A stretch of 64,000 bases of DNA from an uncultured Pseudomonadales bacterium (lineage in GTDB: Bacteria > Pseudomonadota > Gammaproteobacteria > Pseudomonadales > CANNCY01): assembly GCA_947503335.1 (NCBI GenBank), contig CANNCY010000004.1, positions 258,305-322,304 on the forward strand. The letters are read 5' to 3'. Position 1 is the stretch's first letter, and each line of letters opens with the position of its first letter. Made by a program: the position numbers and the translations under genes. The notes beneath the pieces are model-generated. The model made no database searches. It had not been told where the DNA came from and saw only the letters and a list, made by a program, of their open reading frames with translations. Positions 14,736 through 52,320 of the stretch are shown here, piece after piece.

Positions 14736-14745
14736 GAGATCTGAG

Positions 14746-16923: not shown

Positions 16924-16924
16924 C

Positions 16925-29664: not shown

Positions 29665-30132
29665 CTACCAATGAGCCTGTTCAAACAGCTGCATAAACAT
29701 TTGTTTAATTCGAATTACTCCTGCTTGGGGTAGATCCATAGCAATACCAGTGCCGTTTTCTTGAATCAGCGATAGACGAGTCATCTCTGAGGACTGCACT
29801 TCTAACACGTGCTTGATTGCTAGAGGATAGGTGTCGACTTGCGAGATGCATTCGTTATTGCGACTTAATCTTGTCTGAGAGTTCTCTACCGCTCTCTTTT
29901 CAGCATCGTTAACGGCTTCGCTGACACCCACATCTTGACTGTCGTCTGCATGAGTGAGTCGCTCAATGAGTTGCTGTGTCTCAATTTGTGCCTGCACCGA
30001 TGCACCTAATTGAACTAGTATCGACTTTGCAATGCGCCGCGTAATCCACCAGTCAGGTTGCGTTACATCAAGCCCAGTCTTAAGCAATACACGATCTTGT
30101 CTAGAGTCGTAGGTAATTTCTAGTGCACTCAT
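29665..30132 (-). CDS. Hypothetical cytoplasmic protein (155 aa), no recognised domain
   Basis: The ORF starts 1 nt after the stop of the 389-aa gene. No signal peptide or TM. Confidence 0.4.
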   Translation of the reverse strand: MSALEITYDSRQDRVLLKTGLDVTQPDWWITRRIAKSILVQLGASVQAQIETQQLIERLTHADDSQDVGVSEAVNDAEKRAVENSQTRLSRNNECISQVDTYPLAIKHVLEVQSSEMTRLSLIQENGTGIAMDLPQAGVIRIKQMFMQLFEQAHW

Positions 30133-30133
30133 A

Positions 30134-31303
30134 TTAAATCAAGTCGTCAAGACCACCTTGTTGGGGATCAGGGCGATCAAGGTTGGTATGCTCATGATCA
30201 GGCGTGTCGGCGAATACATCGGGTTCAGCTGAAATAGCAGCTTCTGCACTCGTCCAGTCGCTAATAGCTGCGTCGTCTTCAATCGCTTGTGTCGATATGG
30301 ATGCTTGAGGCGCTGAGTATTCAGACGAGATATCTAGCGTCAGCTCTGCTTTGGCACCTTCGACCGGTTGTCCTAACGCCGATAAACCTTCAAATTTGAT
30401 CGATTGAGGCCCCGATGCATCAGGGCCTAGCGACAAGTTAATGCTTGCGTCTAAATTGCCAGACACATGAAACTCGCCAGGATTTACTTCAATGCCTGCG
30501 CTTACTTTGGCGCCAACAGGTAGATCGTAAATAGAGACCTGATCTACTTGTTCAAGTGACGTAATGTCAGAAGGTATAGAAATAGCGAATTCTGAGTCGG
30601 GCGGCGCGGTAAGATCAAATGACGATTCTGGTTCAGCAGTGTTCACAATAGCTGGTTCGTTAACATCGATACTATCGCTCGGTTCTTTAGCCTCTGTATA
30701 GCGTGGCGACACCATAAAGCGCTCGGCAAAGCCAATGGGTTCACCGCTATTTTCTTCAGCTCTGGCAAGCGAGAATTGATGGTTAAAAACAGATCCTTGG
30801 TCAACGATTTCGATGTCTACAATAGGCTTGTCAGGCGCGTCATCGCCTTGTTCTGATAGCTCAAACTGAAACACATCATCGTCTATTCGATTGATCGTTG
30901 CAGCATCACTGTGAACATTGTGAATCTCGGCCACGCTCGATAGTTCGTCAGCTACTGTGCTAAGAATATCCGCAGTTGATAGCGTAAGTGGTGCATCGAA
31001 CGGCATGGTTGCGATGGGCAGGTCGAGTAATTCAACGACCGGGGCAACGTCAAAATCCAGACGAGCGGTGATCACCGACGAGTCTTGTTCTGCCTCGATC
31101 GATAAACCCACCTCACCGCCAAAATCAGGGTCAGAGAAGTAAACCCAACTATCAGGCCCTTCACTGATCAACGTGCCCGACTCGCCAATCTGTTCAATAT
31201 TGCGAATCTGAGCATGTAACTCTAGCTGTGCAATCGACGCGATAATGTCTTTACTTGTAAAAGCCAACTCGCCTGATTCATCAACTCGCCATCTAGCCAT
31301 CAT
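30134..31303 (-). CDS. Acidic 389-aa protein sharing the C-terminal domain of the giant adhesin (candidate second T1SS substrate)
   Basis: Good SD (AGGTGA) upstream of ATGATG. No signal peptide. Its last 151 aa or so align without gaps to the last 151 aa of the 6,990-aa protein (see findings). Confidence 0.6.
   Translation of the reverse strand: MMARWRVDESGELAFTSKDIIASIAQLELHAQIRNIEQIGESGTLISEGPDSWVYFSDPDFGGEVGLSIEAEQDSSVITARLDFDVAPVVELLDLPIATMPFDAPLTLSTADILSTVADELSSVAEIHNVHSDAATINRIDDDVFQFELSEQGDDAPDKPIVDIEIVDQGSVFNHQFSLARAEENSGEPIGFAERFMVSPRYTEAKEPSDSIDVNEPAIVNTAEPESSFDLTAPPDSEFAISIPSDITSLEQVDQVSIYDLPVGAKVSAGIEVNPGEFHVSGNLDASINLSLGPDASGPQSIKFEGLSALGQPVEGAKAELTLDISSEYSAPQASISTQAIEDDAAISDWTSAEAAISAEPDVFADTPDHEHTNLDRPDPQQGGLDDLI
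30137..30589 (-). other. Homologous C-terminal domain in the 389-aa protein
   Basis: ...ISIPSDITSLEQVDQVSIYDLPVGAKVSAGI...ISSEYSAPQ...AIEDDAAISDWTSAEAAISA...QQGGLDDLI. Positional matches to the giant protein tail over the full length. Confidence 0.55.
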
Positions 31304-31347: not shown

Positions 31348-34300
31348 TTAAATGTAGTCGTTCGGATCGTTATCGCCTCCATTGTTTTGATCAGGGGTAT
31401 TGTCTTCTGCACCACCGGTATCAGCGAGTGGGTCAACACCGCCTGCGTCAGCAGCGGCAGTAGTCCAGTCGTCTGCAGCAACGGTATCGTCAATCGCCTC
31501 TGCGTTGTCTGCGCTGCTACCATCAAGCGCGTAGTCGCTGCTTACTTCAACACTGGTCGTTGCCTCTGCGCCATCAACAGGGTTGTTTAACTGATCCATG
31601 CCCTGAATATCTAGAACCGCAGTACCTTCAAAGTTGTCTCCAAGGGTCATCGAAACCGGCTGGCTTAGATCGCCACTTAACGTGTAGCTACCATCGCCGT
31701 TGTCTATGCCGCTTGATAGAGTGGCTCCCTCTGGTAGACCTCCAATTACAACCGAATCAACAGAAGCATCACCCGAGATATCGGTCGGAATCGATACAGA
31801 CACCGAGCCGCCAGGAGCTGCTTGGGCGTCAATGCCATCGGCAACGGCATCAGGGCGAGTATCCCCTGATAGTGATGCCTGAACCGTCTCGGTGCCGTCA
31901 CTAACATCAAAGGTCATATCCACTTCGCCCTCATGGTTTTCATCAGCGACTAACGTATAGGTGCCGTCGCCATTGTCGGTCATGGTGGCGTGATCAGACT
32001 GGAAGTTACTAACGGTGAGGTTATCGCCATCAACATCGCTAACATTCGCTAATAGCTCTTCTAGCGTGAATGTTTGCGTGCCCGTTTCGACGAGATCAGC
32101 CTCTACAGCACCACTTACCTCAGGTGCATCGTTCTCTGCTGTGATCGTGAGATTGATGTTACCCGTGCCACTGTTATTGGCGTCACTAGCGCTTACTTGA
32201 AGCTGTACCGTGCCGTTATAGTCAGGGTCACTCCAGAAGGTGTAGGTGCCGTCGCCATTATCGATGACCGTACCGGCATCAGGGTCAACGGTTACATCGT
32301 CGATGCTGCCGGTACTATCTACTGCACCCACTTGATCAAGTAGTTCGGCGGTGGTCAACGTAAGCGAGCCGTCTTCTGCCATGGTGTATTCGGCTGGGTC
32401 AGGGTCGGCGATCGCTACATTCAATTGGCTTTGTATCGTGCTGGTACCATCGGTTGCACTAAAGCCAATGGCCACGTCACCGGTAACCCCTTCATCTGGG
32501 GTAAAGGTATAGGTACCGTCGCCATGATCAAGAACAACGCCTTCGCCGCCAATTACTTCGACGCCGCTAATACTGAGGTCATCACCATCGGCATCGTTAA
32601 CCGTGCTCAATAGGTCTGCATCAGTAAAGTTGAGGCTGTTACCAGCATCAATGTTTGTTGTGATTTCGGTGTCGGCGGTAGGTGCACTGTTGCCGCCACC
32701 GGCATTATCAAACACTGCAATCGAGCTTTGCGCATCTGTGCTGTTGCCGTTTTCGTCGACCACTAAGAACGCCATACCCACTTCGCCCGAGAATCCATCA
32801 GCCGGAGTAAAGGTGTAGGTGCCGTCGCCGTTATCAACCAAGTCACCCTGCGAACGATCTGCAAGATGGGCGAGTTGAACACTATCGGTTTCGCTGGTCT
32901 CAAGGCCTGACATTTCGAGTAGATCGGCCTCGGTAAAGGTAACCGGCTCGCCTGCATTGGTCTCAAAGTCACCGACAGGAACAGTACTACCATCGAGATC
33001 GGTTACTTGTTCGTCACCGTAGTCAATGGTGGTTGCACTTACCGTTACCTCAAAGGTGCCTGCCCAGTTTTCGGGTGGCGTCATCGCAATGTTTTCGGTA
33101 TCCCAACCGGTCACGTCGACATACTGATTCTCTTCAGTAATAGTAATCGTGTTGGTGCCATCGCTTAGTACGAAACCAACAGGGAAGCCGGTAATTGCTA
33201 CGTTACTAATTGATTCACTGTCATCAATTAAGCCGACACTGAAGCTAAAGATGCCGGTTTCATCTTCGGTCATCACAATCGGCCCATCTTGGGTGCGAGT
33301 AATTACCGCGCCATCGGCTACTGGGCGAATATAAACCGGTAGGTCTAGCGTGGTCTCTTCAGTACCATCGGTGACCACAAGCTCTAACTGAGGAATACCG
33401 GCAAAGTCTTCAGCACCCACGTAGGTGTATGTGCCGTCGCCGTTATCGGTAAGTGAACCCTCTTCATCGTCGGGTAAGATCACCCGCGAAATAGCAACCG
33501 TGTCACCATCGACATCGCTAAATAGATCAAGCATGTCATCGGCGTTGAAGGTGATCGCGCCGTCTTCTTCAATCGCTAGATGAGCATTACCCGACGCAAA
33601 GGCAGCATCGTTGACCGGCTGAAAGTCAGTATTTAAAGTACCATCGGTCGTGGTGGTGCCATCACTGATTTGGTAATCGAGTTCGATTACCCCGTTAAAG
33701 TCTTGTGATGCCACTAGTTGATAGGTGCCATCCTGCTGTTGGTTTAACTGCGCGTTTTGGGGCTGACGTACACTCAGATTAGTAAGTGTTAGATCATCGC
33801 CATCAAGATCAGTCGCCTGAGCTAGAATAAACGCAGGGTCGATGGTGAGTACCTGATCTTCGGTGCCGACCAGTTCTACGGTAGGCGCGTCAGGGGCATC
33901 GTTAACACCTTCGACGTTTACGTTATAGGTTGCACTGGTGGTAGCTTCGCCATCGGTCACGTCATAGCTAATTGCGATCTCACCGTTAAAGTTTTCGGTG
34001 GGCGTAAAGCTAAAGGTACCGTCGCCGTTATCAACCAACGTTCCTTGCGAGTCATCCTCCATGGCAAGATTTAGAGCTGTTAGCGCATCGCCATCGATAT
34101 CACTCGCATTCTCCAACAAATCTTCTTGAGTGATCGTGATAGTGCCGTCTTCTTGCATGCTAGTAGACGAGCCAGCGCCACCGGCTGCAAAGATAGAAAT
34201 ATCATCAACAAAGTGTTCTGCAGTTGAGCCACCTGTACCGCCGGCGAAGGCGGCTTTTACAGAGTCGGGTAGGTTAATACCGTTGTCTGGCAGAGAATAG

Positions 34301-37300
34301 TTTTCGATCTCGGTAACAAAGGTTGTGCCGCCATCGTAACTTAGCTGAACATTAAGCACACCTTCGGGTGAGATATCGATGTTAACCGGAATAGTCTGGT
34401 TATCGATAACGTCGTTACCTAAGTCGAACGTTTCAACTACACCGTTTGGCCCAATCAGCTGTATCGAATCGCCCCACCATTCTTCAAAGGCAATACCGAA
34501 TTCCATGCCGTCCATGCCCTGAATACCCATGCTGCCGCCAGGGTTGCCAGCTTCAAAGTTATTGCCATCAATTTGATCGCCGTTAACTAACACAAAGCCC
34601 ATGCCGTCGCCGTTATCGGTGGCCGACTGGTTACCCATGGTAAAGCTAACCTGAATACCCTGGTCAGAGGGCATCTCTTCATCATAAAGAATCGCGCCAG
34701 CCTGCTGACTTGTATCTTCAGTTAGCGTTACTTCGCCGTCAGCGATAGTTGCGTCGCCCGCTGCAACCCATCCTTCAGCGTTGCCGCTAAAGTCTTCGCT
34801 CATGTCGATGCCACCAGCGACAACTGGGCCATCGTTCACCGCATTGACGGTGATATCGACGCCGCTTTGTACCGTAGAGCCATTACCGTCAGAAATGTCG
34901 TAGGTAACATCAAGCGCACCATTAAAGTTGGCATCGGGCGCGATCGTAAAGCTGCCGTTGCCATTGTCGGTTACTGTCGCATTAGCAACCTGCAAATTAC
35001 TTGCGGTTAGATCGTCACCATCAGCATCGGTCGCGTTGGCGAGTAGTTGCTCTTGGGTAAGGGTTAGCGAACCATCTTCGTCGATCGTGGCGGTGACATT
35101 ATCGCCTACCACAACAGCATCGTTTACTGACTCAACTGTGGTTACATGCATTGCTTGCACTGTTTCAGTGCCGTCAGTTGCATCAAAGGTGAATGCAAGG
35201 CTGCCATTAAAGTCGGCATCGGGGGCAACAGTAAAGGTACCATCGCCGTTATCTTGAATTGTTGCTTCGGTTGACCCCGGTGCTAGCTGCAAGTTACTCG
35301 CCGTAATGTCATCACCGTCGATGTCGGTAGCGTTGGCTAACAGATCATCTTGGGTGATGATTAGAGTACCATCTTCGTTAACGGTGCTACTTGATACGTC
35401 GACACTTGGACCATCGTTGACCGCTTCAACAGTAACATCCAAAGTATTACTAACAGGGTCGCCGTTTCCATCACTAATGGTGTAGTCGATCTGTATGTCG
35501 CCATTGAAGTTAGCACTAGGTTCATAGGTAAAGCTGCCGTCGCCGTTATCGGTTAGGGTACCGTCGGCACCATCTGCCAACGATACCGATGAAACGCTGA
35601 TAACATCACCATCAACATCGTTTGCGTTGACCAATAGATCAGCGTTGGTGAATGTATAGCTGCCGTCTTCTTGCATGGTAGCCGACAGTGGGTCACCAGC
35701 TGTTGGCAGGTCGTTGACATTGGTTACTTCAACATTGATTGTGCCCTGAGCTTGACCACCGTTACCATCATCAATGGTATAGGTCACTGGCATCGTGCCA
35801 ACAAAATCATCATTACCTGTGATCGTGTAGGTGCCATCGCCATTATCCACGAAGGTACCGTCATCGCCATCGTAGCTCATATTGGTAATGGTTAGGGTGT
35901 CACCATCAACGTCAGATACGGGTAAGATGTTAATAAGTTGCGCAGGGTCAACCACAACAGACGCTTCTTCGGCTTGGCTAACTGCAACGGCGTTGGCGAC
36001 TTCAGGTATATCATTTACAGGGTTAACGGTGACATCAATACCTGATTGCACGGTTGAGCCATTACCATCACTAACATCAAAACTAACGTTAAGTGAGCCG
36101 TTGTAATCGGCATCAGGTGCAACCGTGAATGAGCCGTCACCATTATCAGTAACGGTTGCATTTTGTACCTGCAAGTTACCGGCAGCAAGATCATCGCCAT
36201 CAACATCAGTTGCATTAGCGAGTAGATCATCTTGAGTCATGGTGAACGAGCCGTCTTCGTCAATCACCATGGTGAGCTCGGCGCCAACTTCTACAGCGTC
36301 GTTTACTGCAACGATATCCACACTGATGGTCTCAGAATTAGTTGCTGTACTGTCACCGTCGGTTGTAGCTGCAGTCGCAGTGATAGAGATTTCACCGCTA
36401 AAGTTTTCGGGTGGCATCAAGGTAAGATCTGCAAGATTCCAACCGTCGACATTAATCGAGCCACCATCGCTTTCTGGCGTATAGCTATTAGTGCCATCAG
36501 ATAGCGTTACACCAGCTGGGATATCACTTAATTCTAAACTTAAGGTTTCAGATCCGTCGGTATCAACAAGAGTTGCCGATAGATCAACGTTGACCGCAGT
36601 GTCTTCGTAATGGGTGTCATCAGTTTTCTGGGCGACAACACGAATGTTGTCCATGATGCCACCGGCACCATCATCGCTGTGTGAATTAAAGATGATGGTT
36701 GGATTGTCGACCGTAGCAGTGAAGGTAAATTCATACGAACCCCAACCCGCGCCATCAACTGGCTCAACATCAAAGGCTTCGAAACCGTTCTCAGTTTGAA
36801 CGCGAATATGGATGCCATCATCGCCCGTTGCGCCAGCACGTGCGGCTGCATCAAAGCTAAGGGTGAAGGTGTCACCTACCTCAACACCATCAGCATCTCT
36901 CATGATGCCTGCCCAACTTGAATTGCCGTACGTCTCTAGCTCAACTACCTGACCGTGATCACCGGTAGCAAATGCGCCTAAGTATGCAGACTCATCATTT
37001 ACTTCAATGTGATTTGATGGGGTAGCAGTTGCCCATCCCCATTGATCAATGTCGGTTAAGCCAGCGGTGATGTCTTCAAAATCTTCATTAAATATTTCAG
37101 TCTCAATAATATTCGCAGCAGGTTCTATGGCAAATGCCAACTGTGCAGCATCTGCAACTTCAACCACATTTAATGTGGATGCAAATTCTGCAGTAGTCGT
37201 GCCATCAGATAGTGTGATGGTTAGATCAGCAGCACCTGCGAAATGTTCATCGGGTGTGATAGTAAAGGTACCGTCGCCGTTATCGACAACCGAGCTATTT

Positions 37301-46300: not shown

Positions 46301-49300
46301 TCGCTCGCATTACTAAGTAACGCCGCCTCAGTAATGGTAAATTGGGTGTCTTCGGTTGCGTTAAACGTTGGTTCATTGTCTACATCAATCACAACTGCAT
46401 CGTTAACATCTTCAACCGTAAAGGTAAGATCTGAGGAAGCTGATGCGGTATCACCATTCGCCCCTTCTTCTGAAGTGGCGGTAACTTGCAGCGTAACATC
46501 TCCTGCAAAGTTTTCAGGTGTAGTGATAGTAATTGACGACATGTTCCAATCAATCACGTCGACACTGTCACTATCAGCAGTTGCGGTAAAGGTGTTGGTA
46601 CCATCAGTAAGAACTGCACCTTCAGGAATCGATTCTACTTCAATTGATTGCATCGATTCTGAGCCATCGGTATCGACCAGTGCGGCATCAATGTCCAAGC
46701 CAATTGCCGTTTCTTCTTGCGTAGCTGTCGGCGCAGAGATACGAATAACATCAAGTACTGCACCGCCGCCGTTGTGTGATGGCGAGTCTAGCTCAAGTCG
46801 CGGATTGTCAGTGGTCGCTGTCAGTGTGTAGGTGTGGGATTCCCAACCGACTTCTGGCAAGATTGAATCGATCAGTTGCCCTTCAAAATAGACATCGACC
46901 TGAGAATCTGCGCCGGCAGAGCCAACGCGCGCAGAGATGTCAAAGCTAAGCTCAATCGTATCACCGGCTTCAATATCAAGATTTTGATAAACGTTAGCTT
47001 CATCACCAACAGCCGCTTCAAGCTCCATTACCAAGCCACGATCATCACCGACACCATAGACCCAGTCTTGGTTAACTTCGATACCACCGCTTTGGTTATC
47101 GGTTTGCCAGCCTTGCAGTACACCACCTTGAATATTGGCGTCGCCAAACTCTGCTACTGACATCTGTTGTAACGATACAGTTAACGACGGAGCGTCGGCG
47201 TCAGCATCGATTGTCACTGGCGAATTAAAATCGGCTGTGGTGGTGCCGTCACTCAGAGTGATAGTTAAGCTGGCATCGCCGCTGTAGTTTTCAGTAGGGG
47301 TGTAGACCCAGTCCCCATCACCGTTTTGCGTAACACTGCCATCTTGGGTTGAGATATTGGTAACGCTAAGCGCGTCACCGTCAATATCAGAAGCATTAGC
47401 TAAAAGCTCGGCTTCAGTAATGACAATACTGTTGTCTTCAGTCAGTGCGAAGCTAGTTTCTGCAAGCACTGGAGTGTCATTAGCAGCCGCGACATCAATG
47501 TTGCCATGAACATTGGTGGTAGCTGTGCCATCAGATAACGTAAAGCTGAATGGAACATCACCGTTGTAATCGCCTGTAGGGGAAAAATCAAAAGTACCAT
47601 CGCCATTATCGGTAACCGCACCAAAGCTCGGGTCAATCGTTAGATTAGATGCGGTTAACTCATCGCCATCAATATCAGACGCATTTGCTAACAGATCGGC
47701 CTGGGTGATAGTGATCGTTGTGTCTTCAGTACCAACTAGATCAACGTCATCGCTAGTGGCCGCATCGTTCACCGCGTCTACCTGCAGATGAACTGTCGCA
47801 TCTACCGAAGCAGAACCATCATTGACAGTTGCGGTTAAATCAATATCACCGTTAAAATTTTCACTAGGCGTAAAGCTATAGGTACCATCACCGTTATCAA
47901 CAAGGGTACCGTCGTCACCTACGTACGAAACCGCTTCAAGGGTTAAGTCATCGCCATCAATATCGGTAGCTTGAGAGATGATATCGTCAGCGGTTAATAC
48001 GATAGTGGTATCTTCATCCATCGTATAGGTTGGGTCAGGAAACGAAGGTAAATCATTTACAGCAGCAACATCAATCGCAGCCGTCGTAGTTGAAATATCT
48101 ATACCATCACTAACAGAAACATTGAGGGAAATTTCACCGTTAAAGTTAGCGTTTGGTGTGAAGGTAAAGGTGCCGTCATCATTATCTACTAATGTGCCAT
48201 CGTCACCCGTATATTCAACATTATCGATAGATAAATCATCACCATCGATGTCAGAACTGTTGGCAAGAAGTTGCGCATCACTGAGCGTAATGACACCGTC
48301 TTCATTCATGCTAAACGATGTCGATCCAGCAATCGGTGCATCATTAACTGCAGTAACATCTACGTTGATTGTCGATGCTGTAGTCTCGGTACCATCGTCT
48401 ACAACAAAATCGAGAACGACGTCGCCATTAAAATGTTCGTTCGGCGCAAAACTGTAGGTGCCATCGCCATTGTCTGCAAATACACCGTCTTCACCTGAGT
48501 AACTTACCGAGTCGATACTGTGCGTATCTTCATCATCAAAGTCTTCAACATTGGCAAGTAGGTGTTCATCGGTAAAGGTAAGTGTGCCATCTTCGTTGAC
48601 AACTACATCATGGGTGTCAACAATCGCCGCATCGTTTACTGCCGTAACGCTTAGGTTTAATGTGCCAGCGATTGTTCCAGTGCCGTCATTAATGTCATAG
48701 CTAACCGTTAGCTCGCCGTTAAAATGCGGATCAGGTAAAATACTAAAGCTGCCATCACCGTTGTCAGTGACCATCGCATTGGCCACAACTAAGTTGTCAG
48801 CCGTTAGGTTGTCACCGTCTATATCAGATGCATTGGCGAGTAGGTCGTCTTGGCTAAGGGTAATGCTAGTATCTTCTGCAGTGGTCGCGCTTACATCATT
48901 AGTGACAGGTAAGTCATTTACTGCATTAACTGTAAGATCTGCATTACCTTCAATAACACGATCACCATCAGTAATATCAAAGGTAATACCGATTTCGCCA
49001 TTGAAGTCAGCATCTGGAGTGATCGTAAAGGTGCCATCGCCATTGTTGGTTAGCGTAGCGTCACCTGTAATGGCAAGATTACTCGCCGCTAAACTGTCGC
49101 CATCGGCATCGGTAGCGTGGGTTAATAGGTCAGCTTGAGTTAGTGTTATTGCGCTGTCTTCGTCTACAGACACAGCCAAGTTTTGATTAACTTCTGGCGT
49201 CGAGTTTGTGCCTTGCATCTTAAATACAACATTGGCTGTATCGGTAGCGCCATGTTCATCGGTGATCGTGTAGGTAAACTGTGCGGTTTCAAACTCGCCA

Positions 49301-52300
49301 AATTCCAATGCGGCGGCATCAGAGTCAGGCATAAATTGAACCTGTTCAACACCGTCGATTTCAACAACGTTTAACGTACCCAGAACGGTTCCGTCAGCAT
49401 TCACCACATCAGACAGGCCGGTAATGCTGAAACTGTCACCGTCGATATCAAAATCGTTAGACAATACATCAAAATTGGTAATCACATCATCGGCAGCAAT
49501 AGTACTGCCTTCTAATGATTGGCTAACTTCAGGGTTGCCAGTGATTACTGGCGACTCGCCAATAATATGCGCGTTGCTGCCCTCGACAACAAACTCTGAA
49601 CCCTCTTCAAACTGCATTCTAAACTGCGGCTCAACGCCTTGGGTTGTCTCTAAGGTATCGCCCCGCATTAGTGCATCAACATCATCTTGGGTTGCGCTGA
49701 TGTTGGTGTAGGTTTGAAAGTCGCGAATTTCACCGGTCATGTCGCCGGCCATGTGAGAGGTACCTAGGGTCATCGCTGAAGACCAGTCAAAGTCTGATTG
49801 CGATAGATCGCCTGACGCAGCGAGCTCGCCGTCGATATAAATCTGGTTGCCACCATCGCCTAAGCTATAAACGACATGGTGCCACTCGCCATCGGCAAGA
49901 TCGCCAACGTTGGTAGTGGTGTAATCGTTCTGGCCAGATGAGTCCCACGTGTAAGCAACCATATCGCCGTCTTCATTTAAATAAAGATCGCGGTCGTTAC
50001 CGTTGCCTGGGTCAATGATACCGAACAAACCTTGCGGGCCCTCAGCGTCTGGCTCAATTTTGAACCACATTGAGGTGACCTGACCATGAATGTCATTGTT
50101 GCCAACATTCAACTGCAGCGAGTCATCACCATCAAGCACCAAGCTGCCGACGTTGCCATCGTTAGAGGCAACAGGATTATCGTTTACAGCATTAACAGTT
50201 ACGTCTAGGCCTGATTGAACTAAGTCTGTACCATCAGAAACGTTCATGGTGAAGTTCAGTTCACCATTAAAGTTTTCATCTGGAGTAATCGTATAGCTAC
50301 CATCACCATTGTCAGTTAGGGTAGCGTTCTCTACACCGGTTAGTGACGCGGTTAAACTATCACCTTCTATATCACTCGCGTTCGCTAGTAGATCAGCCTG
50401 AGTAAGCGTGATGGAGCCGTCTTCATCAAGCGTTACGGTGACGTTACCAGAAACATCGGCAGCGTCGTTGGTTGCTGCTATATCGAGGGTCGCACTTGTG
50501 CTAGTAACATCAGTACCATCGTTTATTTCATAATCTAACGTAACTTCACCGTTGAAGTTTTCATTAGGGTCAAAACGATAGGCGAGTGTTGTATCGACGT
50601 CACCGTTGGTAGTAACACCTGATTGGCCAGTTGCATCGATGATCTCGCCGTTTTCAACGCGCAGGTCAAAGGCCATGTTCGCTGCCACTGTTGATAGGTC
50701 GGCTTCTGCTTCAAGCGATGCATCATCGACCCTTTCATAGGCCATTGAAAAGTTTAAAAGCTCGGCGTTCGATGTAGCCTGTGTTGAATCAAAGCCACCA
50801 CCATAGGTGTCTTGCTCTTGACCAAGAATAACTAAGCCATTCGCAGGTATGGTAATGCCTTGTTGCAGTGTGTCGGTGCCTACAAGCTCGCCATTATCGA
50901 AGACTTTCATAACGCCATCTTCGGCTGACCAGCTAATTGAAATATGGTGGGGCTGGCCGTCGTTAAGATCGAGTGATCCAAACATCGCCGAATCAGTGTT
51001 GCCTACATCTAACCCTAAGCCACCATCAGAATTGCGAACGTATACATTGAGCATATTATTGCCCGCATCTGAGGTCGCTGCACCAAACAGGTTTTCAATA
51101 CCACCGCTATGAGCACCGGTCGAGGTATAGGTGAAATCAAGCGTGAACTCATCATAGCTCTCTAAGGTTTCATCAAGACGAACCTGGCCATCGGTACCAC
51201 CGCCAAAGGCAATGCTACCTGATTCGGTAAGGGTGCCGTCGTCGCCGGCATAGCTGACATTTTGTACGCTGAGATCATCACCCTCAACATCGGTAGCGTT
51301 CGCCAAAAGGTCGGAGTCGGTGAAATATACAGCGCTATCTTCGCTACCAGCGATAGTTGGCTCGCCGCCAACGGCTGCGTCATTGACTGCTGCTACATCA
51401 ATAGTTAGGTTGGTACTAGTAGAATCAATGCCATCAGACACATCGTAGCTAAAGCTAACCTCTCCATTAAAGTCTTGTGCGGGAGTAAAACTGAAGGTGC
51501 CATCGCCATTATCAACGATCGTGCCCATATCAGGATCATCGAGTGTTAAGTTCTCGGCGACAAGATCATCAGGATTATCTACATCAGATGCATAGGCAAG
51601 TAATTCATCTTGAGTAATGATGCGTGTTGAATCTTCGGTGCCTGTTAGTGACTGATCTTGAGATACTTCAGGCCCGTCGTTCACCGCCTGTACGCCAAAG
51701 GTGTAGGTTTCCTCTACGGTAGTGGTATCAAAGTCCTCTACAGGTGCTGCGTCTTCTACAACATCGACAGAGAATGTTTCCTCAGTTGTTTCAGAATCGA
51801 AGCTCTCTTTGGCGTCACTTAATGATTCCTCTGCCCCCTGTGCAACCCCGCTATCTGCGGCTTTTGGGTCAACTACGTCGGTGCCTGACTTGCTACTGGT
51901 TTCGCCTGATTCTGCATCACCACCAACGGCCTGAGCGCCTACATCGTCGCCACCGCCGTCTTCAGCACTAGCCTGGTCGCCCGCGTCAGAAACGCCGCCC
52001 TCTACAACACCAGATTGAGATTCTGACGATCCGCTAGAGTCACCGCCACTAGACCCACCGCTCGATCCCTCAGAGGAGTCACCCTCACCAGACTCATCTC
52101 CAGCAGATCCAGACTCTCCGTCATCTGATGATGCTTGAACAGAATCATCCATTCCTACATCGCCCGAAGCAGCGGTATTGGCAACAGTGCTCGTCGTATT
52201 CTTATTCTGCTCTTCCGCTTCAGAGCTCGATTCGGCACTACCGTCGTTTACTGATTGCTCTACCGCGTCGTTGAGAGGGTTTTCATTGTTTGGATCTTGC

Positions 52301-52320
52301 GCATCACTCATCGCTAGCAT
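31348..52320 (-). CDS. Giant (6,990 aa) repeat-rich surface adhesin, probable type I secretion substrate
   Basis: Single uninterrupted 20,973-nt ORF with no N-terminal signal peptide and strongly acidic composition. Dozens of repeats of about 95-100 aa carry the signature ...EDxxxxxxxxDLLANAxDxDGDxLTxxNL...DNGDG[ST][FY]x[FIV]xPxxxFNGxxxxx[FY]x[IV]xDG. Lectin-like inserts are present. Divergent from ABC exporter genes. A possible alternative start is the ATG at 52311. Confidence 0.9.
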   Translation of the reverse strand: MLAMSDAQDPNNENPLNDAVEQSVNDGSAESSSEAEEQNKNTTSTVANTAASGDVGMDDSVQASSDDGESGSAGDESGEGDSSEGSSGGSSGGDSSGSSESQSGVVEGGVSDAGDQASAEDGGGDDVGAQAVGGDAESGETSSKSGTDVVDPKAADSGVAQGAEESLSDAKESFDSETTEETFSVDVVEDAAPVEDFDTTTVEETYTFGVQAVNDGPEVSQDQSLTGTEDSTRIITQDELLAYASDVDNPDDLVAENLTLDDPDMGTIVDNGDGTFSFTPAQDFNGEVSFSYDVSDGIDSTSTNLTIDVAAVNDAAVGGEPTIAGSEDSAVYFTDSDLLANATDVEGDDLSVQNVSYAGDDGTLTESGSIAFGGGTDGQVRLDETLESYDEFTLDFTYTSTGAHSGGIENLFGAATSDAGNNMLNVYVRNSDGGLGLDVGNTDSAMFGSLDLNDGQPHHISISWSAEDGVMKVFDNGELVGTDTLQQGITIPANGLVILGQEQDTYGGGFDSTQATSNAELLNFSMAYERVDDASLEAEADLSTVAANMAFDLRVENGEIIDATGQSGVTTNGDVDTTLAYRFDPNENFNGEVTLDYEINDGTDVTSTSATLDIAATNDAADVSGNVTVTLDEDGSITLTQADLLANASDIEGDSLTASLTGVENATLTDNGDGSYTITPDENFNGELNFTMNVSDGTDLVQSGLDVTVNAVNDNPVASNDGNVGSLVLDGDDSLQLNVGNNDIHGQVTSMWFKIEPDAEGPQGLFGIIDPGNGNDRDLYLNEDGDMVAYTWDSSGQNDYTTTNVGDLADGEWHHVVYSLGDGGNQIYIDGELAASGDLSQSDFDWSSAMTLGTSHMAGDMTGEIRDFQTYTNISATQDDVDALMRGDTLETTQGVEPQFRMQFEEGSEFVVEGSNAHIIGESPVITGNPEVSQSLEGSTIAADDVITNFDVLSNDFDIDGDSFSITGLSDVVNADGTVLGTLNVVEIDGVEQVQFMPDSDAAALEFGEFETAQFTYTITDEHGATDTANVVFKMQGTNSTPEVNQNLAVSVDEDSAITLTQADLLTHATDADGDSLAASNLAITGDATLTNNGDGTFTITPDADFNGEIGITFDITDGDRVIEGNADLTVNAVNDLPVTNDVSATTAEDTSITLSQDDLLANASDIDGDNLTADNLVVANAMVTDNGDGSFSILPDPHFNGELTVSYDINDGTGTIAGTLNLSVTAVNDAAIVDTHDVVVNEDGTLTFTDEHLLANVEDFDDEDTHSIDSVSYSGEDGVFADNGDGTYSFAPNEHFNGDVVLDFVVDDGTETTASTINVDVTAVNDAPIAGSTSFSMNEDGVITLSDAQLLANSSDIDGDDLSIDNVEYTGDDGTLVDNDDGTFTFTPNANFNGEISLNVSVSDGIDISTTTAAIDVAAVNDLPSFPDPTYTMDEDTTIVLTADDIISQATDIDGDDLTLEAVSYVGDDGTLVDNGDGTYSFTPSENFNGDIDLTATVNDGSASVDATVHLQVDAVNDAATSDDVDLVGTEDTTITITQADLLANASDIDGDELTASNLTIDPSFGAVTDNGDGTFDFSPTGDYNGDVPFSFTLSDGTATTNVHGNIDVAAANDTPVLAETSFALTEDNSIVITEAELLANASDIDGDALSVTNISTQDGSVTQNGDGDWVYTPTENYSGDASLTITLSDGTTTADFNSPVTIDADADAPSLTVSLQQMSVAEFGDANIQGGVLQGWQTDNQSGGIEVNQDWVYGVGDDRGLVMELEAAVGDEANVYQNLDIEAGDTIELSFDISARVGSAGADSQVDVYFEGQLIDSILPEVGWESHTYTLTATTDNPRLELDSPSHNGGGAVLDVIRISAPTATQEETAIGLDIDAALVDTDGSESMQSIEVESIPEGAVLTDGTNTFTATADSDSVDVIDWNMSSITITTPENFAGDVTLQVTATSEEGANGDTASASSDLTFTVEDVNDAVVIDVDNEPTFNATEDTQFTITEAALLSNASDIDSDDLIVTNLQIPNASFNTVIDPDTGDKSFVVTPDENFNGDVDISFSVSDQEGSVVESGASLTVAAVNDGPVAVDDSATANEGETILIDVLANDSDIESDVSIQSVDETVMLNGVEVGTAEIVDIPVMGQVELNASDATSTSNLYGGTLLEDDSWSAGHNIIINGENYDSGIGMHPGDGLSTATFEIPEGATNFSSILGMTSSGLVNVSVRVDGVGVFDQANVTANSDGGIVDIDVTGGSTLTLLVHSNGTKDNDHLVWANPEFTAPTGETDQQIQFTPNENFTMLSVDEQADVTIDYVIVDEDGATDSATATITVSGVNSEVDAGAPVTASIDEDGSITLSQEDLLANASDVDGDDLTASNLNAGDNATVTDNGDGTFTVTPDANFNGDLDLTFDISDGNGSVVESAVDISVTPVNDIPEIANVVAVSQAEEASVVVDPAQLINILPVSDIDGDTLTITNMTYEGDDGTFVDNGDGTYTITGNDDFVGTMPVTYTIDDGNGGTAQGTINVEVTNVNDLPTAGDPLSATMQEDGSYTFTNTDLLVNANDIDGDVISVSSVALADGADGTLIDNGDGSFTYQPSTNFNGDIQIDYTISDGNGDPVSNTLDVTVEAVNDGPSVDVSGSTVNEDGTLIITQDDLLANATDIDGDDITASNLQLAPGSTEATIQDNGDGTFTVTPDADFNGSLAFTFDATDGTETVQAMHVTTVEAVNDAATSDDVDLVGTEDTTITITQADLLANASDIDGDELTASNLTIDPSFGAVTDNGDGTFDFAPTGDYNGDVPFSFTLSDGTATTNVHGNIDVAAANDTPVLAETSFALTEDNSIVITEAELLANASDIDGDALSVTNITATDGNGSVTQNEDGDWVYTPAENYSGDANLTISLNDGTVTADFDSAVTITPDADAPSLTVALGEMSVAEFGDANIQGGVLQGWQTDNQSGGIEVNQDWVYGVGDDRGLVMELEAAVGDEANVYQNLDIEAGDTIELSFDISARVGSAGADSQVDVYFEGQLIDSILPEVGWESHTYTLTATTDNPRLELDSPSHNGGGAVLDVIRISEPSSTDEDTAITLDIDAALVDTDGSESMQSIEVAAIPEGAVLTDGSNTFTATAEADSVEVGDWDLSSLTITTAENFSGDVTLDISATSIENENGDTETSTAQLNFTVEEVNDAVVIDAGNEPSFNATEDTQFTITEAALLSNASDLDSEDLIVTNLQIPNATFNTVIDPDTGDKSFAVTPDANFNGDVDISFSVSDQEGSVVESGASLTVAAVNDAADVSGNVGYTIDEDGSITLTQDDLLANASDVDGDNLTATLTSVANATLADNGDGSYTITPDENFNGELNFSMDISDGTEVVQSGVDITVNAVNDGPVAVDDGEAGGALQLPGGGSIGVPGGANADNGEFTVSMWVKVDPENQGEQGLFSVGTYNSSGADRQISMDADGNIEAYAWQSGVGAQHIESNVGSLADGEWHHITYSLDGDNQNLFIDGELAAQGSMGTSGFDWSDVVVIGDDWTHNPMVGEIKDVQVYDGYGASADDAQQMMGGDTIDGQDALFHHQFNGDNPFNAEGPDGEITSTVWGSPTVEAEYLIDGVIAADDVITNFDVLANDSDVEGDVSIITLSDVVDADGNVIGAVSVVEIDGQEQVQFSPNATVLQLAEGEQVLGQFTYEIIDNEGAKATANVSFNFEGTNDTPVVSQNAAASVDEDGSITLTQADLLVNASDVDGDTLVAENLSIDGNASVVNNGDGTFTITPDTDWNGQIDVSFDVTDGTETVSAGLDLTVNAVNDLPTTTPVTANTLEDNSITVTQDDLLANAADIDGGPLTAENLTIDGPAMVTDNGDGSFTINPDPNFNGELNLSYDINDGTGTVDGSLNINVTAVNDAATSTAVGLNGTEDTSLTITQADLLTNASDIDGDALTAVNLSIDESFGSLTDNGDGSWNFEPADDFNGQVPFTFQIDDGTELTAANGNVNVGAVNDLPTLDSAVTFSATEDEGLVINAADILANASDVDGDALSVTDISSTDGNTTILNNGDGTFTLYGDDNFAGTDNLEITISDGTDTATFSSSVEVAGTADEPFLALNLDTTPLHSFTVTESGWQNPAVWGWSTDNTGGDGGAGFNNLVEVNQASGTYGVTGSTEGTVLELEGYGNDAGNLWKDLDIQAGETFTIEFDMSGRNNLDPQSNHVKLFFEGEEIDQMIPEIGFETFSYTLTATEDNPRFEFQAAFNDGAGALLDRVTVTKADLSADEDNAVAIDISAALADNDGSESLEVEISGLLENAVLTDGVNSFTATADEDSVDVSGWDLSNLSMTPPENFNGDASLTATATATDAGGDTATSTMDIPITINAVNDAVQVGDNLAVTIDEDGSFTMTQEQLLANASDLDGDDLTAQNLQSSNASITDNGDGTFTVSPDANFNGDLDVTFDVTDNNGSTIQSNIDVTVTAVNDGPTVDTSLSNVAEDGIITITQDDLLANAVDIDGDDITASNLQLAPGSTEATIQDNGDGSFTVTPEADFNGELAFTFDATDGTETVQAMHVTQVTAVNDAAQASDNTITATEDTAYQLSSADFPVTDADGDDYTVTIDSIDGEGSLILGYDTSLPEANFTLDTTTNSSADGVVVTNDAELGQVYTFDSPDTDVIDLDTNVEMGESWTVSVDFQNPKLNDGQWSTLTRGDVSDGGNHHILLHGTTNEIGVYSNDHSQFFGSGFFLNSDHNDGQFHNLTAVGEGGETHFYIDGEFVGSSAHQVTNSISEVGNFDHDDDGLGNHQPFAGSLANFEVFDDALTAEQIDGLVNGNQEVQPGDNLTQSQLDQLTFVPDENAHGDGLVDIGFHAVDENGLAGESATLSFNVTSVDDETIVNDTNLSVDEDNSITITDEQLLANASDADHSLSIENFTLTSEDAGTLVDNGDGTYAFIPDADFNGQVQFDYDVSNGTDATAGNAFLEVNPVNDAPVMTRVDFNTSEDGAITVNAADILANASDVDGDVLSVASISSSDGNSSVVDNGDGTFTITPDEHFAGAADLTITLSDGTTTAEFASTLNVVEVADAAQLAFAIEPAANIIETEIFNEDFEDITAGLTDIDQWGWATATPSNHIEVNDESAYLGAFATGDHGQVVELETYGNSSWAGIMRDADGVEVGDTFTLSFDAAARAGATGDDGIHIRVQTENGFEAFDVEPVDGAGWGSYEFTFTATVDNPTIIFNSHSDDGAGGIMDNIRVVAQKTDDTHYEDTAVNVDLSATLVDTDGSETLSLELSDIPAGVTLSDGTNSYTPESDGGSINVDGWNLADLTLMPPENFSGEISITATAATTDGDSTATNSETISVDIVAVNDAVEVGAELTMVIDEDGSFTMTQDDLLANATDVDGDDLAAGNLQVQNATVTDNGDGSFTVAPDADYNGSLNVSFDVSDGNGSTVQSGIDVTVNPVNDIPEVANAVAVSQAEEASVVVDPAQLINILPVSDVDGDTLTITNMSYDGDDGTFVDNGDGTYTITGNDDFVGTMPVTYTIDDGNGGQAQGTINVEVTNVNDLPTAGDPLSATMQEDGSYTFTNADLLVNANDVDGDVISVSSVSLADGADGTLTDNGDGSFTYEPSANFNGDIQIDYTISDGNGDPVSNTLDVTVEAVNDGPSVDVSSSTVNEDGTLIITQDDLLANATDIDGDDITASNLQLAPGSTEATIQDNGDGTFTVAPDADFNGSLAFTFDATDGTETVQAMHVTTVESVNDAVVVGDNVTATIDEDGSLTLTQEQLLANATDADGDDLTASNLQVANATVTDNGNGSFTIAPDANFNGALDVTYDISDGNGSTVQSGVDITVNAVNDGPVVAGGIDMSEDFSGNAEGWVAAGDATIADGEVTLTEDTSQQAGAILYDEEMPSDQGIQVSFTMGNQSATDNGDGMGFVLVNGDQIDGNNFEAGNPGGSMGIQGMDGMEFGIAFEEWWGDSIQLIGPNGVVETFDLGNDVIDNQTIPVNIDISPEGVLNVQLSYDGGTTFVTEIENYSLPDNGINLPDSVKAAFAGGTGGSTAEHFVDDISIFAAGGAGSSTSMQEDGTITITQEDLLENASDIDGDALTALNLAMEDDSQGTLVDNGDGTFSFTPTENFNGEIAISYDVTDGEATTSATYNVNVEGVNDAPDAPTVELVGTEDQVLTIDPAFILAQATDLDGDDLTLTNLSVRQPQNAQLNQQQDGTYQLVASQDFNGVIELDYQISDGTTTTDGTLNTDFQPVNDAAFASGNAHLAIEEDGAITFNADDMLDLFSDVDGDTVAISRVILPDDEEGSLTDNGDGTYTYVGAEDFAGIPQLELVVTDGTEETTLDLPVYIRPVADGAVITRTQDGPIVMTEDETGIFSFSVGLIDDSESISNVAITGFPVGFVLSDGTNTITITEENQYVDVTGWDTENIAMTPPENWAGTFEVTVSATTIDYGDEQVTDLDGSTVPVGDFETNAGEPVTFTEADLLEMSGLETSETDSVQLAHLADRSQGDLVDNGDGTYTFTPADGFSGEVGMAFLVVDENGNSTDAQSSIAVFDNAGGGNSAPTADTEITTNIDAGNSLNFTDADLLSTVNDADGDDLSISGVEVIGGEGVVLDHGDGTYTFTPDEGVTGDVAIGFSATDGTSTIQSQLNVAIADPDPAEYTMAEDGSLTLTTAELLDQVGAVDSTGSIDDVTVDPDAGTVIDNGDGTYTFWSDPDYNGTVQLQVSASDANNSGTGNINLTITAENDAPEVSGAVEADLVETGTQTFTLEELLANVSDVDGDNLTVSNFQSDHATMTDNGDGTYTLVADENHEGEVDMTFDVSDGTETVQASLSGDTRPDAVADGIDAQAAPGGSVSVSIPTDISGDASVDSVVIGGLPEGATLSSGIDNGDGSYTLSGDLSQPVSMTLGDNFEGTAVLDIQGMDQLNNPVDGAEATTSVEVSSDYALDGSSADNAEAIDDTVAADDWTTAAADAGGVDPLADTGGAEDNTPDQNNGGDNDPNDYI
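31351..31803 (-). other. C-terminal domain of the giant protein (about 151 aa), putative secretion/targeting domain, non-RTX
   Basis: ...VSIPTDISGDASVDSVVIGGLPEGATLSSGI...VSSDYALDG...AIDDTVAADDWTTAAADAGG...GGDNDPNDYI. No GGxGxD nonapeptide run seen anywhere near it. Confidence 0.55.
34189..34800 (-). other. L-type (legume-like) lectin-like module, single copy
   Basis: SEDFSGNAEGW...QQAGAILYDEEMP...GIQVSFTMG...GDGMGFVLV...GNPGGSMGIQG...FGIAFEEWW...VNIDISPEGVLNVQLSYDGG...AAFAGGTGGSTAEHFVDDISIF follows the L-type lectin strand pattern. Confidence 0.55.
35116..36027 (-). repeat. Intragenic duplication, copy D (912 nt)
   Basis: Partner of 44149-45060, about 9 kb away. A third, more diverged partial copy of its first unit lies at about 38655-38965. 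Confidence 0.8.
36634..37092 (-). other. DUF642/CBM-like beta-sandwich module, copy D
   Basis: FNEDFED...DQWGWATATPSNHIEVN...GQVVELETYGNSSWAGIMRDADGVEVGDTFTLSFDAAAR...GWGSYEFTFTATVDNPTIIFNSHSDDGAGGIMDNIRVV. Confidence 0.5.
37942..38412 (-). other. LamG/concanavalin-A-like module 4
   Basis: ...ESWTVSVDFQNPKL...NHHILLHGTTNEIGVYSN...DGQFHNLTAVGEGGETHFYIDGEFVGS...AGSLANFEVFDDAL. Confidence 0.55.
39571..40020 (-). other. DUF642/CBM-like beta-sandwich module, copy C
   Basis: FTVTESGWQNPAVWGWSTDN...VEVNQ...GTVLELEGYGNDAGNLWKDLDIQAGETFTIEFDMSGR...GFETFSYTLTATEDNPRFEFQAAFNDGAGALLDRVTVT. Confidence 0.5.
41701..42156 (-). other. LamG/concanavalin-A-like module 3
   Basis: ...GEFTVSMWVKVDPENQGEQGLFSVG...DGEWHHITYSLDGDNQNLFIDGELAAQG...VGEIKDVQVYDG. 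Confidence 0.6.
42472..44160 (-). repeat. Intragenic duplication, copy B (1,689 nt)
   Basis: Partner of 46090-47772. Boundaries were placed at the shared ...SLTVAAVND and VNDAATSDD codons by reading both DNA copies. Confidence 0.85.
43117..43530 (-). other. DUF642/CBM-like beta-sandwich module, copy B
   Basis: FGDANIQGGVLQGWQTDNQSGGIEVNQDWVYGVGDDRGLVMELEAAVGDEANVYQNLDIEAGDTIELSFDISAR...GWESHTYTLTATTDNPRLELDSPSHNGGGAVLDVIRIS. Confidence 0.5.
44149..45060 (-). repeat. Intragenic duplication, copy C (912 nt, three repeat units)
   Basis: Aligns without indels to 35116-36027. About 88-92 percent identity in the stretches I compared by eye. Confidence 0.8.
45505..45870 (-). other. NPCBM-like carbohydrate-binding module, single copy
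   Basis: NLYGGTLLEDDSW...INGENYDSGIGMHPGDGLSTATFEIPEGATNFSSILGM...VNVSVRVDGVGVFD...IVDIDVTGGSTLTLLVHSNGTKDNDHLVWANPEF matches the remembered NPCBM pattern (G-[IL]-G-x-H ... F ... V-x-V-x-x-D-G ... L-x-L-x-V ... D-H-x-x-W-A-x-[AP]). Confidence 0.6.
46090..47772 (-). repeat. Intragenic duplication, copy A (1,683 nt)
   Basis: Aligns with 42472-44160 (offset 3,618 then 3,612 nt, with one 6-nt indel). Identity is mosaic; see findings. Confidence 0.85.
46735..47148 (-). other. DUF642/CBM-like beta-sandwich module, copy A
   Basis: Same protein sequence as copy B over the module. The DNA is about 99 percent identical over about 270 nt of it. Confidence 0.5.
49702..50148 (-). other. LamG/concanavalin-A-like module 2
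   Basis: GSLVLDGDDSLQL...VTSMWFKIEPDAEGPQGLFGI...DGEWHHVVYSLGDGGNQIYIDGELAASG...TGEIRDFQTYTN. Confidence 0.6.
50728..51219 (-). other. LamG/concanavalin-A-like module 1
   Basis: GSIAFGGGTDGQVRLD...FTLDFTYTS...NMLNVYVRN...DGQPHHISISWSAEDGVMKVFDNGELVG...LILGQEQDTYGGGFD...LLNFSMAYERV. Confidence 0.55.
51736..52320 (-). other. N-terminal acidic Ser/Gly/Asp/Glu-rich low-complexity region of about 195 aa
   Basis: ...SSDDGESGSAGDESGEGDSSEGSSGGSSGGDSSGSSESQSG... No hydrophobic segment and no folded retention-module-like region before the first repeat (AVNDGPEV at aa 212). Confidence 0.7.

Follow-up and report, generated by a model that had tools for sequence, protein, structure and literature searches.

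A giant tandem-95 repeat protein without RTX repeats or an N-terminal retention module, encoded beside a probable two-ABC type I secretion cluster in an uncultured Pseudomonadales bacterium

The stretch of DNA analysed here (64,000 nucleotides of contig CANNCY010000004.1, hereafter the window) comes from an uncultured Pseudomonadales bacterium. On its minus strand, at 31348..52320, lies a gene for a protein of 6,990 aa (the giant), in which about 50 tandem-95/Cadherin_5 Ig-like repeats are interspersed with ten lectin-like or carbohydrate-binding-module-like (CBM-like) modules. The genes of two ABC proteins, ABC537 and ABC708, adjoin the giant gene and are divergently transcribed from it. We have high confidence that the giant would be a substrate of a system for type I secretion (T1SS) and belongs to a widespread, uncharacterised family that has neither RTX repeats nor an N-terminal plug and is associated with a two-ABC cluster containing phosphorelay-type genes; confidence in its being an adhesin is moderate.

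The open reading frame (ORF) itself is real. It starts with ATG and runs in one frame through 6,990 codons (20,973 nt) to a lone stop at its end, as described in the initial annotation; translation could equally well begin at codon 4, which is also Met. An assembly artefact or a decaying pseudogene is extremely unlikely: repeats abound in the gene, two internal duplications of 1.1-1.7 kb among them, but the computed chance of 6,990 codons without a stop is ~e^-336, the duplications are just 85% identical, no exact DNA repeat within the gene exceeds 189 nt, and homologues of 5,269-7,068 aa are present in complete Vibrio and Aliagarivorans assemblies. The internal DNA repeats of the gene gave no sign of a collapsed or chimeric assembly. 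The two segmental duplications (42471..44160 versus 46089..47772, 1.7 kb; 35117..36258 versus 44150..45294, 1.15 kb) carry repeat blocks plus a DUF642-like module and show that the gene has grown by duplicating multi-domain cassettes internally.

The predicted protein has a mass of 723 kDa and an isoelectric point (pI) of 4.05, with 13.6% Asp, 0.8% Lys plus Arg and no Cys. The highest 19-residue Kyte-Doolittle mean is only 1.23, so the giant has no transmembrane (TM) segment, in agreement with the earlier reading that it lacks any hydrophobic stretch. The absence of a hydrophobic N-terminus (no Sec signal), the acidity and the lack of Cys are generic traits of T1SS substrates, and the conserved C-terminal module would correspond to their uncleaved C-terminal signal.

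Domains were sought with Pfam and NCBIfam in 900-aa tiles and with a hidden Markov model (HMM) built from the giant's own repeats. The latter detected 50 Ig-like units, 36 of them at 70 bits or more, 4 intermediate and 10 degenerate; the approximately 40 repeats counted initially thus correspond to the canonical units. The repeats are of the tandem-95/Cadherin_5/Big_9 type: NCBIfam NF012211 (tandem-95) scored 230-582 bits per 900-aa tile (cut-off 90), Pfam Cadherin_5 (PF17892) scored 208-510 bits per tile (cut-off 26.5), and Big_9 was also matched. The repeat consensus, VNDAPEVSQEVTLSVDEDGSITITQADLLANASDVDGDDLTVSNLSVTGEGTVTDNGDGTFTLTPDEDFNGEVSLTFDVSDGTETV, combines a linker of the cadherin-like form xNDxP with two loops resembling DxDxDG. 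Each repeat carries the Asp-rich motifs VNDAP, DVDGDD and DNGDGT, which we take to resemble known Ca2+-binding motifs. The Ig-like extender that is expected of RTX adhesins is therefore present (50 units), whereas the C-terminal tandem GGxGxDxUx nonapeptides (beta-roll) expected of a LapA-like RTX adhesin are absent. A single, isolated GGxGxD occurs at aa 433, no tandem nonapeptides were found, and neither the Pfam nor the NCBIfam tiles gave a match to RTX/HemolysinCabind families, so that the initial statement that GGxGxD blocks are missing holds.

The inserted modules, all on the minus strand, are dispersed over the entire stalk, as had been noted before. Four are LamG-like: a LamG/pentaxin-like module at aa 381-515 (50776..51180; Pentaxin 61 bits, Laminin_G_2/3) and Laminin_G_3 modules at aa 702-926 (49543..50217), aa 3366-3591 (41548..42225; 75.9 bits) and aa 4642-4862 (37735..38397; 39.2 bits). 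These and an NPCBM module at aa 2128-2326 (45343..45939; 66.8 bits, cut-off 23.9) all scored above the Pfam cut-offs, and the four LamG and one NPCBM modules of the initial annotation were thus recovered. The DUF642/CBM-like modules also number four, at aa 1697-1856 (module 1; 46753..47232), aa 2903-3062 (module 2; 43135..43614; 96% identity to module 1), aa 4073-4243 (module 3; 39592..40104) and aa 5045-5222 (module 4; 36655..37188); modules 1, 2 and 4 matched under the Pfam threshold and module 3 is a paralogue by alignment only. An L-type (legume) lectin-like module occupies aa 5817-6045 (34186..34872) and was matched consistently, under the Pfam threshold, by two Pfam lectin families and by a PDB legume lectin (E 0.006). 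For these two kinds of module the earlier counts were correct; the family labels are tentative because the scores lie under the Pfam thresholds. When eight DUF642-like modules were scanned (three from the window, five from other loci), DUF642 was matched in five, and CBM_4_9 was matched at 8.9e-6 in one copy, from another locus.

Upstream of repeat 1 the giant has 212 aa of acidic, low-complexity sequence (51685..52320), predicted to be unfolded, with 82% D/E/S/G/A/T/N/Q and a net charge of -48. The initial annotation had given this region as an acidic, disordered N-terminus of about 195 aa. Acidity and predicted lack of fold stood; the length is 212 aa and the region is not featureless. Five motif islands are conserved in an alignment of 55 homologues and are shared from Vibrio to Alteromonadales: PLNDAVE (aa 15-21), QNxNTxSTxAxTA (aa 38-52), AQxVGG (aa 128-134), FDSETxxETFxVxV (aa 173-186) and DFDTxTVxETY (aa 195-207). 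Conservation in the 55 sequences reaches 90% or more for LNDAVE, QxVGG and FDxETxxETF. In a single-sequence AlphaFold2 (AF2) model aa 1-230, a short helix at aa 15-24 excepted, stayed under a predicted local distance difference test (pLDDT) value of 50, and repeat 1, which served as an internal control in the same run, reached 57-80; the model supports the claim that no folded domain precedes the repeats.

Residues 1-900 matched only repeat and LamG models in Pfam and NCBIfam, and a PDB sequence search with aa 1-215 returned no match. PGAP labels LapA-like proteins 'retention module-containing protein', and NCBIfam should therefore include a retention-module model; the NCBIfam scan of the giant gave no retention-module match. 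The reported lack of a LapA-like retention module is thus upheld, and surface retention of the giant, if any, cannot rely on a LapA-type plug. It is correspondingly very unlikely that the giant is a LapA-like adhesin controlled by c-di-GMP and LapG whose retention module and RTX repeats are too divergent to detect. Its general architecture (T1SS, Ig-like extender, ligand-binding modules) would fit, and a single 'TAAS' in the N-terminus (aa 49-52) resembles the TAAG site of LapG. In the homologues, however, the corresponding residues read TVATGAE or TTATGA, so that the di-alanine is not conserved, no retention-module or RTX family was matched, and LapD- or LapG-like (BTLCP) genes were found neither among the scanned window ORFs nor in the annotated homologous clusters or the 66 related loci described below, where Hpt-like and receiver genes take the accessory places instead.

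The C-terminal module of the giant (aa 6830-6990; 31351..31833) consists of a degenerate Ig-like unit and an acidic tail ending NDYI, and is presumed to contain the T1SS signal region. This module of ~160 aa is conserved in homologous giants of Shewanella and of the loci L043 and L077, as well as in the 389-aa protein encoded next to the giant. The tail aligned with the Shewanella and L043 giants at E 1e-22 to 5e-32, and the C-terminal 388 aa of the L077 giant are 45% identical to the window giant. PDB sequence and profile searches with the tail returned nothing meaningful. The endings NDYI, NDFI and DDLI (acidic, then hydrophobic) are reminiscent of the extreme C-terminal motif of protease/lipase-type T1SS substrates. 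No GGxGxD was found in the last 1,062-2,525 aa of four homologous giants. Since these four C-termini are free of RTX repeats and the acidic N-terminus recurs in 55 homologues, neither trait is peculiar to the window gene.

The 389-aa protein (30134..31303, minus strand; gene 44 nt downstream of the giant gene) is an acidic mini-paralogue of the giant: its product starts inside a degenerate repeat, comprises two degenerate repeats followed by the giant's C-terminal module, and ends DDLI. BLASTP against the last ~470 residues of the giant gave 25% identity (E 5e-26), which bears out the shared C-terminal tail reported initially. The protein is soluble and as acidic as the giant (pI 4.05), and lacks a signal peptide, a TM segment, a lipobox and Cys; no outer-membrane- or peptidoglycan-binding domain was found in the scans. 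Its sole detected homologue, with 393 aa and 40-42% identity, is encoded in the contig L007 and shares strongly conserved blocks such as GPDSWVYFSDPDF. A search of 5.8 billion proteins returned only the protein itself, a metagenome scan returned no homologue, and the gene is absent from the other clusters in which the 3' end of the giant gene is visible, including those of Shewanella, L043 and L077. The initial annotation had proposed that this protein might tether the giant to the cell. In favour of a tether are the proximity of the genes, the common C-terminal module and an ORF kept intact at similar length in the related contig; this role is nevertheless highly improbable and drew no support, given the lack of any anchoring feature or binding domain, the low pI, the detection of a homologue only in L007 and the absence of the gene from ~60 other clusters. 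As the gene is absent elsewhere, it cannot be a family-wide anchoring solution. Because it has the same C-terminal module, equal acidity and no anchor features, the 389-aa protein is likely a co-substrate, a lineage-specific small second T1SS substrate derived from the giant's 3' end.

The transport genes next to the giant were not mentioned in its initial annotation, which was silent on the two divergent ABC genes, the outer membrane protein, the receiver protein and the conserved cluster to which they belong. ABC537 (52487..54100, plus strand; 537 aa) is a half-transporter with a degenerate nucleotide-binding domain, having VYLFDD at Walker B, no catalytic Glu and no LSGGQ; its gene served as the cluster marker. 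ABC708 (54097..56223, plus strand; 708 aa) is an LssB-type T1SS ABC permease/ATPase, extended at its N-terminus by ~170 aa and having the canonical Glu at Walker B, so that the Walker B motif ends in 'DD' in ABC537 and in 'DE' in ABC708. Both matched the T1SS families LssB, PrtD and HlyB. A TolC-family outer membrane protein (OMP) of 444 aa (60651..61985, minus strand) is encoded 8 kb away and is 27-28% identical to the outer-membrane efflux protein (OEP) of the homologous clusters. The product of the adjacent gene (61985..64000, minus strand, open to the window edge) is a membrane protein that is 36% identical to a Vibrio protein, 'RR743'; its kinase core looks degenerate, and a receiver domain forms its C-terminal part. 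Two TM segments flank a periplasmic loop of ~130 aa in this protein. No HisKA domain was found by Pfam, and the His of the H-box appears, as read by eye, to be replaced by Tyr or Phe at the expected site (GYEIRG in Vibrio, with the member L004 6381..8612; GFEIRA in the window). A receiver-domain membrane protein with the look of a pseudo-histidine kinase is conserved between the membrane fusion protein (MFP) and OMP genes in ~60 species loci.

ABC537 homologues of ~44% identity occur across Vibrio, Photobacterium, Shewanella and relatives, and a scan of species-representative genomes based on ABC537 gave 66 loci. About 60 of the 66 have the gene order giant <-> [Hpt-like][MFP][RR743][OEP][ABC528][ABC712]. 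Annotated Vibrio and Aliagarivorans contigs contain a Cadherin_5 giant of 5,269-7,068 aa divergent from this six-gene operon, whose products are an Hpt-like protein of ~110 aa, an MFP of ~449 aa, a receiver protein of ~743 aa, an OEP of ~470 aa, ABC528 and ABC712. The cluster was found in Vibrio, Photobacterium, Aliivibrio, Thaumasiovibrio, Shewanella, Psychromonas, Colwellia, Oleiphilaceae, Aliagarivorans and Paraferrimonas; V. harveyi and V. splendidus are among the genomes, and proteins of V. alginolyticus and V. parahaemolyticus were also matched. Compared with the Vibrio proteins, identities were 44% for ABC537, 45% for ABC708, 36% for the receiver protein (E 3e-121) and 28% for the OEP, and the window receiver, OMP and both ABC proteins matched the Vibrio/Aliagarivorans cluster genes at E 1e-41 to 0 (1e-41 to 3e-121 for the receiver and OMP). 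In the window the operon is split and its gene order rearranged: 8 kb separate the ABC pair from the receiver and OMP genes, which are encoded on the other strand. We conclude with high confidence that the giant is a member of a family whose reach extends to 66 or more species-level genomes of marine Gammaproteobacteria.

Within this family the composition of the stalk varies. In the Vibrio, Aliagarivorans, Shewanella and L043 giants, the portions sampled contained tandem-95 repeats only, DUF642-like modules lay within the first ~1,400-1,500 aa, the portion covered, of seven other giants, and NPCBM was found in one other giant (Oleiphilaceae, L016). No LamG or L-type lectin module was seen in the sampled homologous giants, which makes the window giant an unusually module-rich member of its family. 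Near a homologous giant of another organism a small ORF was observed, of 199 aa in L078 (6110..6709) and truncated to 107 aa in L077 (6384..6707), with a weak Cadherin_5 match followed by an RTX-like, GGxGxD-type sequence, LVGGKGADILTGGGGVD, and a weak Peptidase_M10_C match; it is possibly a small RTX-bearing substrate beside a non-RTX giant.

The closest functional analogue of the giant is SiiE, of the SPI-4 T1SS of Salmonella enterica, the resemblance being one of function and not of family membership. SiiE had initially been grouped with adhesins that carry RTX repeats; this premise was wrong, as SiiE is a non-RTX T1SS giant in which a non-Ig N-terminus controls retention and release, with accessory proteins also taking part in its retention (PMC6272769). 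A precedent for the logic of the window giant therefore exists. Both are giants without RTX repeats, T1SS-exported in SiiE and probably so here, with ~50 Asp-rich Ig-like repeats and a seemingly lectin-like character; both have a non-Ig N-terminus instead of a plug, and both operons encode extra inner-membrane accessory proteins. They differ in that the repeats are tandem-95/Cadherin_5 here and of the SiiE-type BIg in SiiE, the N-terminus is acidic and of low complexity with motifs here and coiled-coil plus beta-sheet in SiiE, the accessory proteins are Hpt-like and pseudo-kinase/receiver here and the MotAB-like SiiAB in SPI-4, two ABC proteins are encoded here and one in SPI-4, and LamG, CBM and lectin modules are inserted only here. 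Pfam and NCBIfam scans of the giant and its neighbours gave no match to SiiE-type Big or MotAB-like families.

With LapA, MpIBP and FrhA the giant would share T1SS export, a Ca2+-stiffened Ig-like extender and carbohydrate-binding modules. It differs from them in lacking a C-terminal RTX beta-roll, an N-terminal retention module and neighbouring LapG/LapD genes, and its ligand-binding modules are dispersed, whereas theirs are clustered near the C-terminus. The T1SS of MARTX toxins likewise uses two ABC proteins, RtxB and RtxE (PMC3034196), and the RtxB/RtxD/RtxE system is an atypical two-ABC T1SS whose genes, in Vibrio, are divergent from that of the giant substrate (PMC3034196). The substrate of the MARTX system is, however, a toxin with RTX repeats; here one ABC protein has no N-terminal domain and a degenerate ATP site, the OMP gene is part of the cluster, and genes for Hpt-like and receiver proteins are interspersed in it.

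Another marine adhesin, BapP, is produced by Pseudoalteromonas tunicata, which we take to belong to the same order as the window organism. BapP is a Ca2+-dependent gammaproteobacterial biofilm adhesin with cadherin-like/Big_9 repeats and no LapA-type module, but it has 1,600 aa, a predicted Sec signal, an N-terminal beta-propeller and an adjacent MacAB-like transporter (PMC12153261). In databases the giant and its homologues probably appear under NF012211/Cadherin_5 names; the name 'tandem-95 repeat protein' of NF012211 covers the repeat only and is silent on secretion, anchoring and inserted modules. The 'rtx1' gene of V. alginolyticus, which is mutated in phage-resistant strains and whose function is listed as 'unknown' (PMC8521149), may be a homologue of the giant. 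No description of a giant with this two-ABC T1SS cluster was found in the literature.

Taken as a whole, the reading we favour and consider reasonably probable is that the giant is a T1SS-exported, Ca2+-folded, plug-less, glycan-binding fibre of a conserved family. It would be exported C-terminus first by a dedicated T1SS made up of the ABC537/ABC708 pair, the TolC-family OMP, an MFP and a family-specific accessory pair, namely the two-TM pseudo-kinase with receiver domain and a small Hpt-like protein. ABC537, with its degenerate ATP site, and the catalytically competent ABC708 would probably form a heterodimer. Outside the cell, Ca2+ bound by the Asp-rich motifs of the ~50 repeats would drive folding, block back-sliding and stiffen the stalk, so that repeat folding would take over the role of the RTX beta-roll as a ratchet, and the ten lectin/CBM-like modules along the stalk may give multivalent glycan binding. 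In SiiE, binding of Ca2+ to conserved Asp residues of the Ig repeats was proposed to pull the protein from the T1SS and fold it (PMC6272769). Because Ca2+-folding repeats can supply such a ratchet, the different folding logic suggested initially is not required. Export by a T1SS is the step of which we are most confident, from the gene content and the substrate-like traits described above; the adhesin function is held with moderate confidence, and Ca2+ dependence is expected from the repeat motifs.

Several points weigh against this reading. In three of the four copies in the giant the DUF642 score was 17-21 bits (Pfam cut-off 27), PDB sequence and profile searches with the DUF642-like modules gave no meaningful match, and the Lectin_legB match to the L-type lectin-like module was sub-threshold (E 3e-4). 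The extreme C-terminus varies among the homologues of the giant. The ORFs scanned in the window include no MFP gene; from synteny with 60+ clusters, this gene and the Hpt-like gene probably lie just beyond 64000. The expectation that the protein depends on Ca2+ comes from motifs in the repeats, and a single-sequence AF2 model is weak evidence of N-terminal disorder.

Confidence in any specific retention mechanism is low. The most likely alternative to a plug is retention of the SiiE kind, in which the conserved N-terminal motifs would stay engaged with the secretion apparatus or the accessory proteins. By analogy, this is favoured, with low confidence, over full release, in which the giant, not anchored to its producer cell, would serve as matrix or 'glue' by cross-linking exopolysaccharide, algal glycans or particles. 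Full release is improbable by our estimate, though by a smaller degree than the other alternatives. It would suit the lack of a plug domain, TM segment, lipobox or Cys and the placement of lectin modules along the whole length and not at a distal tip, as in a cross-linker; SiiE, too, is released late in growth (PMC6272769). Conservation of the N-terminal motifs from Vibrio to Alteromonadales is, however, hard to explain without a role after export, and the conserved accessory membrane and signalling proteins of the T1SS operon suggest that retention or release is controlled.

As a speculation, the Hpt-like and receiver proteins are candidates for a phosphorelay-controlled regulator of secretion or retention. 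Three signalling genes on both strands lie between the two halves of the split T1SS (56220..60654) and encode a NIT-domain hybrid histidine kinase (HK) (56220..58769, plus strand), a second hybrid HK (58785..60137, minus strand) and an H-NOX protein (60118..60654, minus strand). They are candidate inputs, linked to the system by position, and hint at nitric oxide (NO)- or nitrate-responsive control of the adhesin system via the operon's Hpt-like and receiver proteins. Extended to its full form, such control would amount to a third logic of anchoring and regulation, distinct from both LapA/LapG/LapD and SiiE/SiiAB: N-terminal motifs would keep the fibre attached within the secretion channel or to the accessory proteins, the Hpt-like protein and the pseudo-kinase/receiver would act as an inside-out receptor analogous to LapD, a His-Asp phosphorelay would operate the switch, and NO (H-NOX) and nitrate/nitrite (NIT) signals would be wired to it in this organism. 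This full form is rather unlikely.

Both an N-terminal retention module and a C-terminal RTX beta-roll are demanded by current models and search pipelines for giant adhesins of Gram-negative bacteria, and a recent RTX-adhesin pipeline leaves out proteins that lack the one or the other (bioRxiv 10.1101/2025.09.30.679566). As the giant family has neither feature, it is invisible to such pipelines. The family, with at least 66 species-level genomes and including the aquaculture pathogens V. harveyi and V. splendidus, appears to be unstudied. Its two-ABC T1SS, the Hpt-like and receiver proteins of the operon and the linear motifs of the N-terminus offer a tractable system for plug-free retention and release of a 700-kDa fibre, and the rich, dispersed glycan-binding modules of the window giant are relevant to the colonisation of particles and algal surfaces by marine heterotrophs.

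Downstream of the 389-aa gene, at 29665..30132 on the minus strand, a soluble protein of 155 aa is encoded. It belongs to a rare family, with ~10 cluster representatives among 1.8 billion proteins in an exhaustive search and no homologues in the genome and metagenome scans; members lie directly 3' of giant tandem-95 genes in L007 and L077/L078. Invariant residues are Y8, D13, R14, P26, W28, W29, R32 and the C-terminal Trp. The AF2 model (pLDDT 77) has two beta-beta-beta-alpha halves, and Foldseek against PDB gave no significant match, the best being the PUR repeats of PURA (E 0.03). L075, from another organism, has a gene of the 155-aa family directly upstream of a gene pair for H-NOX and a hybrid kinase.

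The contig L007 matches the order of genes in the window, with the giant C-terminus (72% identity), the 393-aa protein (40%), a 161-aa protein (44%) and the protease (76%). In the closest metagenomic relative (64% identity) the segment 29665..56223, which encodes the 155-aa protein, the 389-aa protein, the giant, ABC537 and ABC708, is a simple intergenic junction, where the genes of the protease and the NIT kinase stand next to each other in divergent orientation. The segment, missing there between the same flanking genes and present in another relative, behaves as a variable cassette.

The protease in question is a trypsin-like S1C protease of 415 aa (28354..29601, minus strand), followed by an FHA/YscD-like protein of 313 aa (27422..28363, minus strand). 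The two genes overlap by a few bases and form a unit that is conserved in Alteromonadaceae (Paraglaciecola, Bowmanella, Thalassotalea) independently of the adhesin; proteases of 45-64% identity point to an Alteromonadaceae-like affiliation. A LapG/LapD-like processing pair was considered for them and ruled out, as the unit is conserved in Paraglaciecola and in the closer metagenomic relative without the adhesin. Elsewhere in the window, a 624-aa GGDEF diguanylate cyclase with TPR-like repeats (1832..3706, minus strand), 28 kb from the giant gene, was the only c-di-GMP gene seen. A run of three genes at 13377..17791 on the plus strand has no relation to the giant and encodes an M28 aminopeptidase-like protein, an S9 prolyl oligopeptidase and an S9/alpha-beta hydrolase.

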